A stretch of 64,000 nt of DNA, from positions 14,033 to 78,032 of the forward strand of contig CASYFC010000008.1 in the NCBI GenBank assembly GCA_949482135.1, written 5' to 3'. The translations under genes and the position numbers were made by a program. This stretch comes from an uncultured Clostridia bacterium (lineage in GTDB: Bacteria > Bacillota > Clostridia > TANB77 > CAG-508). Shown here piece after piece: positions 30,022-30,328 of this stretch (position 1 is the first letter of the stretch; the number at the start of each line of letters is the position of its first letter). The notes beneath the pieces were generated by a model. It did not search any database and was not told the origin of the DNA. It was given only the letters and a program-made list of their open reading frames with translations.

Positions 30022-30050
30022 TTGTAAATTTAAATAATATACTCTATAAT
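30022..30050 (+). promoter_or_regulatory. Sigma-A type promoter of the small toxin-like ORF
   Basis: TTGTAA (30022-30027), 17-nt spacer, TATAAT (30045-30050). The 5' UTR can form a 10-bp bulged hairpin (30059-30069 with 30077-30087) that covers half of the SD. Confidence 0.6.
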
Positions 30051-30079
30051 TAGTGCATCCTTTTCATAAGGAAGTCTTT

Positions 30080-30187
30080 ATGAAAGGAGGTACATATTAT
30101 ATGACATCTTATGAGTTAATCTGGCGATTAGTTGTTTTATTATTATTAAAAAATAATGGCAATGAAAACCAAGAAAGTGAGGAGTAA
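30080..30187 (+). CDS. Small hydrophobic/acidic-tailed peptide, type I toxin candidate (35 aa from ATG 30080, or 28 aa from in-frame ATG 30101)
   Basis: MKGGTYYMTSYELIWRLVVLLLLKNNGNENQESEE. AAGGAAG lies ahead of 30080 and AAGGAGG (30084-30090) ahead of 30101. The ORF is followed directly by an intrinsic terminator. It is below the ORF-track size cut-off and was found by eye. Confidence 0.5.
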   Translation: MKGGTYYMTSYELIWRLVVLLLLKNNGNENQESEE

Positions 30188-30192
30188 TCCTT

Positions 30193-30220
30193 AAAGGAGG
30201 CTGACCACCTCCTTTTTATT
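30193..30220 (+). terminator. Intrinsic terminator of the small ORF
   Basis: Stem aaaggagg/cctccttt, 7-nt loop, TTTTT. Confidence 0.75.
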
Positions 30221-30225
30221 TTGCA

Positions 30226-30293
30226 TAAAAAAAGAGATATGTGACCAACATATCTCAGTACAAGTTCTATGACATCTTACGAACTTATAAGTT
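30226..30293 (-). ncRNA. Predicted ~68-nt convergent sRNA (antitoxin candidate)
   Basis: Delimited by a minus-strand promoter (30300-30328) and a minus-strand terminator (stem 30234-30241/30249-30256 followed by a U-run). Its 5' part is complementary to the start-codon region of the small ORF over 18 bp, including 3 G:U pairs. Confidence 0.5.
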
Positions 30294-30299
30294 AAATAT

Positions 30300-30328
30300 A
30301 TTATAACAGAATAATTTGTTTTGTGCAA
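30300..30328 (-). promoter_or_regulatory. Sigma-A type promoter of the convergent sRNA
   Basis: Read on the minus strand: TTGCAC (30328-30323), 17-nt spacer, TATAAT (30305-30300). Confidence 0.6.

Follow-up and report, generated by a model that had tools for sequence, protein, structure and literature searches.

Does a 28-codon open reading frame (ORF), faced by a short convergent RNA gene, make up a toxin-antitoxin module? This question is raised by a locus at positions 30,022 to 30,328 of a 64,000-nucleotide (nt) stretch of DNA from an uncultured Clostridia bacterium (contig CASYFC010000008.1), here called the window. A first, sequence-only reading had described the locus as a type I toxin-antitoxin-like module with the layout of par, the locus of the Enterococcus faecalis plasmid pAD1 that encodes the toxin Fst. 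Comparison with related loci leads to what looks like a new family of RNA-controlled toxin-antitoxin-like modules that is present in about 40 gut-bacterial and phage genomes. The cassette of the window is a free-standing unit of about 310 bp, which is probably of the type I toxin-antitoxin kind and regulated in the manner of pAD1 par. The computations show that its parts exist, that the ORF and the small RNA (sRNA) are inherited together, that the ORF bears the mark of coding selection, and that both intermolecular helices as well as the helix hiding the Shine-Dalgarno sequence (SD) co-vary.

Organisation of the cassette

The peptide gene is preceded on the plus strand by a predicted promoter (-35 TTGTAA, 30022-30027; 17-nt spacer; -10 TATAAT, 30045-30050), which a consensus scan recovered exactly where the sequence-only reading had placed it (30022-30050); a promoter-like pair stands at the equivalent place in homologous loci. 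The mRNA would start near 30057 and, at about 165 nt (~30057-30222), has a predicted fold with a z-score of -2.3. Its 5' untranslated region (5' UTR) folds in the window into one 15-bp hairpin (30057-30091) that contains the whole SD (AAAGGAGG, 30083-30090), where the sequence-only reading had described a partial occlusion. Family-wide, two hairpins are recognisable in this region, one near the 5' end (30058-30072) and an anti-SD helix (30075-30087) formed with AAAGGAGG. The ORF (30101-30187, plus strand) was taken from the list of reading frames, is open in homologues and comprises 28 codons and a stop; it encodes the putative toxin MTSYELIWRLVVLLLLKNNGNENQESEE, and its ATG lies 10 nt 3' of GGAGG. 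The earlier proposal had allowed for a start at 30080 or 30101. The end at 30187 and the start at 30101 hold, giving 28 amino acids (aa), and the longer version of 35 aa does not: both the upstream in-frame ATG 30080 and a GTG at 30053 were rejected, since they are conserved in no homologous locus, and we therefore regard ATG 30101 as the true start. The transcript would end at terminator T1, found by a terminator scan where one had been predicted, with an 8-bp stem (hairpin 30193-30215), the loop CUGACCA (30201-30207) and a U-run reaching 30222.

The second gene is transcribed from the minus strand. Its predicted promoter consists of -35 TTGCAC (30323-30328), a 17-nt spacer and a TGn-extended -10 TATAAT (30300-30305); the consensus scan printed it as TGCACA-16-TATAAT (30327-30300), which, shifted by one base, is the TTGCAC-17-TATAAT (30328-30300) of the sequence-only reading, with the TGn extension as an addition. 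Promoter and terminator positions together suggest a putative antitoxin sRNA of about 68 nt (30226-30293), folding into a 5' tail, stem-loop SL1, a linker and stem-loop SL2. In SL1 (30259-30289) a stem of 9 bp carries a loop of 13 nt, GUAAGAUGUCAUA (complement of 30268-30280), and this loop is antisense to the AUG and to codons 2-4. SL2 is the intrinsic terminator that had been proposed for this strand, a hairpin at 30256-30234 with the loop UUGGUCA (complement of 30242-30248) followed by a U-run (30226-30233). The predicted sRNA fold has an energy of -18.2 kcal/mol (z-score -3.5), equalled in stability by one of 200 shuffles. At one pair of the SL1 stem the minus strand has U·G where the plus strand would give an A-C mismatch; being valid on the minus strand only, this pair argues for a minus-strand RNA. 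Three terminator-like sites were found in the 2.5 kb scanned versus 0.3 expected from shuffles, and two of the three lie in the cassette, facing each other.

The template of the 5' half of the sRNA is a direct repeat, A' (30258-30290), of the start region A (30090-30122). This duplication, already noticed in the sequence-only reading, is real and longer than first described: the repeat finder returned 25 nt at 84% identity (30090-30114 versus 30258-30282), and per-locus A/A' alignments extend over about 31 nt. A 15-mer repeat is unremarkable in the window alone, with at least two matches in 13 of 100 shuffles, and the significance of the repeat therefore rests on the comparative data below. 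RNAduplex predicts that the sRNA pairs with the initiation region of the mRNA (site A, 30089-30115) through 16 contiguous bp at UAUGACAUCUUAUGAG (30100-30115) and a further 6-bp helix, GGUACA:UGUACU, just 3' of the SD (GGUACA, 30089-30094), with -28.4 kcal/mol; cofolding of the two RNAs gains about 17.5 kcal/mol over the separate folds. Pairing over the start codon and first codons had already been proposed, with an extent of 18 bp. A second complementary site, absent from the earlier description, joins the two terminators: the T1 loop CUGACCA (site B) and the SL2 loop UUGGUCA offer a 6-bp kissing match, UGACCA:UGGUCA.

Peptide gene and sRNA gene are inherited together

A search for the peptide and the sRNA in other genomes of the clade, suggested at the outset, found the two together. 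Back-translated searches of one genome per species yielded 37 loci in metagenome-assembled genomes, most of them from the guts of animals and humans, that bear the labels Clostridia, Clostridium sp., Lachnospiraceae, Bacilli, Erysipelotrichaceae and Bacillota. Viral contigs contributed four more, L014, which is cut within the ORF, L061, found by the sRNA terminator alone, and L084 and L085, found by the hydrophobic core alone; the sRNA-terminator pattern matched 31 stretches of viral contigs, with L061 as the single family member. Contigs that carry the exact protein (L001-L012) are 100% identical to the window over 29881-30580 and for this reason uninformative. Between the other loci homology is restricted to the span from promoter to promoter (~30045-30351), hence the unit is indeed the cassette that had been outlined.

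The duplicated start region, whose loss in homologues would have spoken against the proposal, is maintained in every one of the 34 genome loci that have an intact ORF and reach far enough downstream. All 34 also keep the minus-strand promoter and the A-run with the SL2 hairpin, and no intact ORF was seen among them without its sRNA. The minus-strand promoter is a perfect TTGACA-17-TATAAT in 23, has one -10 mismatch in seven and a weaker, window-like -35 in four. Two loci, L017 and L019, retain the repeat, the minus-strand promoter and SL2 despite about 160 nt inserted between the terminators, which indicates that transcript overlap is not required. The inserts themselves (L017 3244-3400, L019 3080-3270) contain long perfect palindromes with 18-22-bp stems and disrupt neither gene; they may be a small insertion element or extra terminators.

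Folded one by one, 20 of 23 distinct homologous sRNAs adopt the SL1-linker-SL2 arrangement. The SL1 stems differ by class (GCAAAUC/GAUUUGC, GCAACA/UGUUGC, AGUUAUC/GAUAACU, UAUUCAA/UUGAAUA, UUCAUA/UAUGAA), and some SL1 or SL2 stems contain a G·U pair on the minus strand only (SL1 of the window, SL2 of L025). RNAalifold predicted no structure on a MAFFT alignment of 20 sRNAs, in which the SL1 arms are out of register; the sRNA structure thus rests on per-sequence folds, and the pair counts below on ungapped, geometry-anchored blocks.

A decayed copy, L049 (428-700), serves as a natural negative control. Its ORF carries a frameshift (MTSYELIWRLIVLFF*), the repeat can no longer be recognised and the loops have ceased to be complementary, but promoter-like and hairpin scaffolds persist: ORF and sRNA decay together. 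Two further variants were met in passing. L013 (857-988) encodes a 93%-identical peptide with an in-frame 3-nt deletion (LLLL to LLL) and has lost 2 nt from the promoter spacer (17 to 15 nt); the contig stops before the sRNA gene. In L035 (4103-4163) a 29-bp perfect palindrome directly after the mRNA terminator is followed by the ORF region in reverse complement; the most likely cause is an assembly artefact of the fold-back type at the contig end.

GenBank phages and PLSDB plasmids, searched at the DNA level and by tblastn, gave no match except a 32-nt similarity in Ligilactobacillus salivarius. It matches the A-run and sRNA terminator hairpin (GAGATATG-CGACCAA-CATATCTC) at 94% and occurs on nine plasmids, for example at L052 1501-1532, which is 3498-3529 of megaplasmid NZ_CP114507.1. 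With no peptide ORF or start repeat nearby, it is treated here as a look-alike terminator and not as a family member, though distant kinship to the sRNA is conceivable. A cmscan of 27000-34000 against Rfam 15 at E values up to 10 returned only tRNA-Met and chance-level matches and nothing real at 30022-30328; a snoR10 match in the cassette is spurious (24 bits versus a gathering threshold of 65).

Both contacts between the RNAs co-vary

If the two predicted contacts are used by the RNAs, changes on one side should be answered on the other. For site A, the ungapped mRNA segment from -3 to +15 was joined to the anchored sRNA block in 19 classes. The intermolecular helix is 81% paired in this alignment, versus 28-51% with a slid partner. 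At the wobble position of codon 2 the pair is A-U in 12 classes, U-A in six and C-G in one; at codon 3 it is A-U in seven, U-A in five, C-G in four and G-C in two, with one class unpaired; and at codon 4 U-A in 14, C-G in two and U-G in two. All three synonymous sites of the core helix therefore change along with the sRNA. The covariation score of 0.219 compares with 0.106 in shuffles (reached by 0 of 500), and cognate duplexes average -34.1 versus -23.9 kcal/mol for non-cognate ones, a difference reached in 0 of 20000 permutations. The three MSSFDLIW phage loci, which were found without use of the N-terminus, have different start regions (UUGAGUUCAUUUGACUUA; AUGUCUUCAUUCGAU), and these are mirrored in their own sRNAs.

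Site B behaves in the same way. The longest complementary run between the terminator loops has a mean of 6.2 nt in cognate versus 3.0 nt in non-cognate combinations (17 classes; 0 of 20000 permutations), and 15 of the 17 classes show a loop-loop complementarity of 6-8 nt. In 10 classes of the main group, aligned by geometric anchoring, the helix is 95% paired versus 23-47% when slid, five of six pairs have changed on both sides, and the covariation score is 0.763 versus 0.230 in shuffles (0 of 500). Even the close relatives L030 and L036 differ by a change of GCUAC to GCAAC that occurs in both loops. The mRNA loop of the window contains a YUNR motif (CUGA), which is not found in every family member.

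A third signal is intramolecular. In the anti-SD helix 84% of cells are paired across 18 loci, with U-A to C-G compensation at two pairs (UCCCU with AGGGA versus UCUUU with AAAGG) and a covariation score of 0.294 versus 0.191 in shuffles (0 of 500). The 5'-proximal hairpin of the mRNA is visible in all loci, with varying stem sequences.

A tandem duplication of the 5' end of the gene and of its terminator, its copies kept alike by gene conversion, would leave similar repeats with no functional antisense RNA. A and A' lie only about 170 bp apart and the two copies of site B (B/B') only about 40 bp, concerted evolution can mimic covariation, and the repeat of the window is by itself not significant. 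We nevertheless consider such a relic very improbable. The similarity is limited to the predicted pairing segments and takes, at the terminators, the form of 6-8-nt loop islands within unrelated stems (AAAGGAGG/CCUCCUUU versus GAGAUAUG/CAUAUCUC), which leaves no flanking homology to drive conversion; in no case does A' run on into a reading frame of its own. Moreover, the opposite strand has kept a near-consensus promoter and an intrinsic terminator, some G·U pairs in the SL1 and SL2 stems are valid in minus-strand RNA only, and covariation is also seen within the SL1 stem. These sequence comparisons lend antisense control good support, and we regard an sRNA-repressed small protein gene as highly likely.

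The reading frame is under selection for its peptide

The ORF is open in 34 genome loci and in three complete phage loci and encodes peptides of 26-31 aa. They begin with MTSYELIWRL[IV]V[LI]LLL, or with MSSFDLIWRLIVLLLL in the three phage loci, and continue with a tail rich in Asn, Asp, Glu, Ser, Lys and Gln; the peptide of the window accordingly combines a hydrophobic N-terminal half with a polar, acidic, Asn-rich tail. Pairwise comparison of codons 9-16, to which the count was limited as codons 1-8 are forced by the search motif, gave 1248 synonymous versus 341 non-synonymous differences. Judged by this pattern of substitutions, the ORF is under coding selection. The family alignment further shows a conserved hydrophobic run, LIWRL[IV]VLLLL, of 11 residues plus flanks, without Pro or Gly, and a Trp at position 8, N-terminal to the run.

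A chance cluster of promoter- and terminator-like motifs in AT-rich intergenic DNA, gathered around a spurious short ORF, is hardly tenable in view of these data. The window has only 28% G+C, and promoter-like hexamers are no more frequent than in shuffled sequence (18 found, 22.8 expected), as such an accident would have it. About 40 loci in different species, homologous over exactly the promoter-to-promoter span, a coding signature and three independent covariation signals stand on the other side, and the comparative data effectively refute it.

The peptide is almost absent from protein databases, because the ORF falls below the length cut-off of common gene callers. A search of 5.8 billion proteins returned two near-identical ORFs only, and the 28-aa gene appears in protein databases only as mis-started versions of 35, 43 and 44 aa, from near-identical contigs. 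No Pfam family matched any of 26 family members at E values up to 10, profile searches against NCBIfam, PADLOC and PDB gave no match for the peptide family, and the motif MTSYELIW is absent from the searchable literature. Genome annotation should heed this class of ORFs that are shorter than the usual gene-caller cut-off.

Proposed mode of action

We propose the following model. It follows the scheme established for pAD1 par, in which a hairpin over the SD silences the mRNA, terminator loops make the first contact with a convergent sRNA, and complementarity derived from the repeats then seals the initiation region (PMC7472228). A sigma-A-type promoter would direct synthesis of the ~165-nt mRNA, which encodes a 28-aa peptide with a hydrophobic N-terminal helix and a polar tail. 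This mRNA would be translationally silent from birth, its 5' hairpin pairing with the SD. A strong convergent promoter would supply the 68-nt sRNA, which has no overlap with the mRNA and presents two recognition loops. The first contact presumably is a kiss of 6-8 nt between the terminator loops of sRNA and mRNA; the large loop of SL1 would then pair with the AUG and codons 2-5, sealing the mRNA over about -12 to +16, the ribosome footprint, and up to +25 elsewhere. Such a duplex should block initiation, an effect we deduce from its position over the SD-proximal region and the AUG, and cleavage of the duplex by RNase III is probable or at least possible. Once the sRNA is lost or depleted, the peptide would be made, presumably enter the membrane and arrest or kill the cell, and its release on loss of the sRNA would favour retention of the DNA that bears the cassette. 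We infer both transcripts with their ends, the order of binding, the involvement of an RNase and the relative stabilities of the two RNAs; the membrane targeting and the toxicity of the peptide are likewise assumed.

Several observations weigh against this model or parts of it. Promoters, transcript ends and both RNAs are predictions. The genome loci were found by way of the motif MTSYELIW, so conservation of residues 1-8 is there by construction. SL1 is not predicted in seven loci (L025, L031-34, L037-38), and the sRNAs of L031-L038 are missing the anti-AUG segment; the recognition geometry therefore varies within the family. In A/A' mismatches, counted over the whole alignment including internal loops, the direction compatible with G:U pairing prevails by 45 versus 35, which is not decisive. 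The permutation and shuffle statistics ignore phylogenetic relatedness, whereas neither the slid controls nor the count of two-sided changes is affected by it. Finally, searches of Pfam, NCBIfam, PHROGs, PADLOC and PDB linked the peptide to no toxin family. Its hydrophobic run extends uninterrupted over only 11 residues (L6-L16, with a break at R9), a short stretch for a transmembrane helix, so the caveat raised in the sequence-only reading stands, and at most about 16 residues could be buried. Because the segment is so short, the peptide might act by a mechanism other than classical membrane poration.

Is the peptide a toxin?

The same design could also silence a peptide that is no toxin, a small membrane or regulatory protein that the sRNA holds back until some signal releases it; such a protein might serve in superinfection exclusion by prophages or mobile elements, in the modulation of lysis or lysogeny, or in a stress response. 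The short hydrophobic segment and the missing toxin-family match would suit such a protein, as would the many copies between housekeeping genes, a setting that does not readily suggest addiction, and the position of the L084 cassette in a lysogeny control region, between integrase and repressor. However, proven type I toxins can be as short, Ibs having 18-19 aa. An intact ORF never occurs without its sRNA in the 34 loci, and the two decay jointly in L049. The repression is layered: the SD is sequestered, the antisense promoter is close to consensus and two contacts co-vary. Such layered repression is a hallmark of toxic small proteins (PMC7472228, PMC6563280). We therefore judge a non-toxic peptide to be unlikely, though of the alternatives considered it is the one to be taken most seriously, and on balance lean towards a bona fide toxin.

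Genomic settings

The surroundings of the cassette also fit a type I module, as these loci often lie in mobile-element settings. In the window it sits just inside a partial duplicate of the 3' end of tRNA-Met (TGGTAGCGACGG) with its terminator, an att-like direct repeat of 43 nt (29888-29930 versus 32330-32372), whose second copy belongs to a full tRNA-Met gene (32357-32433, minus strand; Rfam cmscan). The duplicate brackets a 2.4-kb segment that holds the cassette, ORFs of 257 and 37 aa without assigned function and two small helix-turn-helix (HTH) genes, and no integrase; it looks like an island, a prophage or an element remnant integrated at tRNA-Met. L039 shares 29911-30359 with the window and nothing else, and L013 has the same tRNA fragment with an unrelated left flank.

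Among the phage contigs, L084 carries the cassette between the phage integrase and an S24 cI-like repressor, and L014 carries it after an Amidase_3 endolysin. Near-identical cassettes stand in L031-L038 beside genes for an Erm-like 23S rRNA methyltransferase and an Lsa-family ABC-F ribosomal-protection protein (for example L033 2675-3589, L034 92-1576). These short contigs are binned to Clostridium sp., Bacilli, Lachnospiraceae, Erysipelotrichaceae and Ca. Alectryobacillus, which suggests a widely shared, resistance-carrying mobile element. Elsewhere lone cassettes are found between housekeeping genes, namely dnaB/tilS, rpe, aspS, a cyclophilin gene, an rluA-like gene and carD. The presence in temperate phages, at a tRNA island edge and beside erm-like and lsa-like genes indicates that the cassette may help to stabilise mobile DNA in the gut microbiome.

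Further upstream, the window has three consecutive giant paralogous ORFs of 2598, 3957 and 1909 aa (1186-8982, 9199-21072 and 21181-26910). All three begin with an NPCBM domain and end with a type I dockerin, and the 2598- and 1909-aa proteins also have F5/8 type C carbohydrate-binding domains; this makeup resembles that of cellulosome-type components for glycan degradation in a Clostridium-like gut organism. Directly upstream of the tRNA-Met fragment lies a gene (27100-29883) for a 927-aa superfamily-1 helicase (AAA_11/AAA_12) with a C-terminal DUF2726, an architecture which we assume may be defence-related.

What the family may teach

For uncultured gut Clostridia and their relatives, the record in the reviews consulted, beyond the Clostridioides difficile modules, consists of isolated Fst/Ldr-like or TxpA-like toxin matches in two species and computational candidates (PMC6563280). 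The natural sequence variation of the present family amounts to a ready series of compensatory mutations for both RNA-RNA contacts. The model of a kissing loop followed by start-codon pairing, with its biochemistry from pAD1 par, is thus directly testable, and its specificity rules are readable.

As a more tentative idea, which we hold to be possible and no better than that, the two-contact recognition of the par type may have been selected in its own right and not as a by-product of overlapping transcription. The terminator stems are unrelated and separated, yet a loop 'address' of 6-8 nt persists and has diversified into at least 13 mutually non-complementary classes beside a co-evolving start-codon address, so that each cassette would possess a private two-key lock. 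If this were true, such locks would let many orthogonal copies coexist, and a minimal, enzyme-free selfish cassette of 310 bp could spread among chromosomes, phages and resistance elements.

Comparison with known systems

The closest parallel is the par locus of E. faecalis pAD1, which consists of the RNA I/Fst toxin mRNA and the RNA II antitoxin and has Fst/par-like counterparts in Bacillota (Weaver 2020, PMC7472228). As in par, convergent promoters, here recognised by sequence only, stand at both ends of a module of about 300 bp, and like Fst-type loci the cassettes occur on mobile elements as well as at core chromosome positions (PMC7472228). A small sRNA (~40-70 nt) faces an mRNA of about 170-230 nt, and oppositely transcribed direct repeats in the DNA make the 5' part of the sRNA antisense to the toxin initiation region. 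A second contact joins the loops of the terminator hairpins, and an intramolecular 5' stem-loop hides the SD, with another hairpin right at the 5' terminus of the mRNA. In both systems the peptide has about 30 aa, its N-terminal part being hydrophobic and its C-terminal tail charged or polar. The interaction sequences vary between loci, implying cognate specificity, and the YUNR loop motif is not universal among par homologues either.

There are, however, clear differences. The RNAs of par overlap at one shared bidirectional terminator and have fully complementary stem-loops; here each RNA has a terminator of its own, the stems of the two are unrelated, the distance between them ranges from 18 to about 180 nt, and complementarity is limited to the 6-8-nt loops. 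The anti-start sequence is displayed in the hairpin loop SL1 in most members and not in a free 5' tail. Unlike in Fst and Ldr, the Trp at position 8 precedes the hydrophobic run instead of standing between transmembrane helix and tail, there is no P/D/S/TxxxG motif, and neither the Pfam Fst nor the Ldr family is matched. The sRNA matches no Rfam family, those of known type I antitoxin sRNAs included. The start-region pairing and the convergent promoters of the par/Fst-like layout first proposed are supported.

In sprA1/SprA1AS (PepA1) of Staphylococcus aureus, a pair discussed in PMC7472228, the antitoxin represses translation, its 5' domain pairing with the toxin initiation region outside the gene overlap. 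As in our cassettes, the antitoxin functions in trans though it is encoded next door; sprA1 and SprA1AS do, however, overlap at their 3' ends, PepA1 is an Fst-family peptide, and we know of no separate co-varying loop-loop site described for this pair.

Adjacent, non-overlapping type I modules are known from enterobacteria as tisB/IstR-1, shoB/OhsC and zorO/OrzO (PMC3919570, PMC4147584). They resemble the present family in having the sRNA gene beside the toxin gene, a complementarity block of about 18-23 nt and hydrophobic toxins of 26-29 aa. They differ in their divergent transcription, in pairing at the 5' UTR or standby site rather than at the AUG and in having only one site of interaction; their hosts are Proteobacteria, and the peptides show no relation to ours.

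The best-studied clostridial type I systems are CD2517.1-RCd8, CD0956.2-RCd10 and other modules of C. difficile (PMC6563280, PMC7699646). Clostridial host, frequent location in prophages, small N-terminally hydrophobic peptides, convergent antisense RNAs and cognate specificity are common to both. The antitoxins of C. difficile overlap the toxin genes, and the toxins are longer, with 34-53 aa and Lys-rich tails (PMC6563280); judged by description only, these modules are also set apart by having no start-region repeat and no separate terminator-loop kiss. With four features of par present in the family and two replaced, the cassette appears to work like par, yet lies outside the Fst/par family, and it may best be regarded as a new, par-like variant of the type I module.

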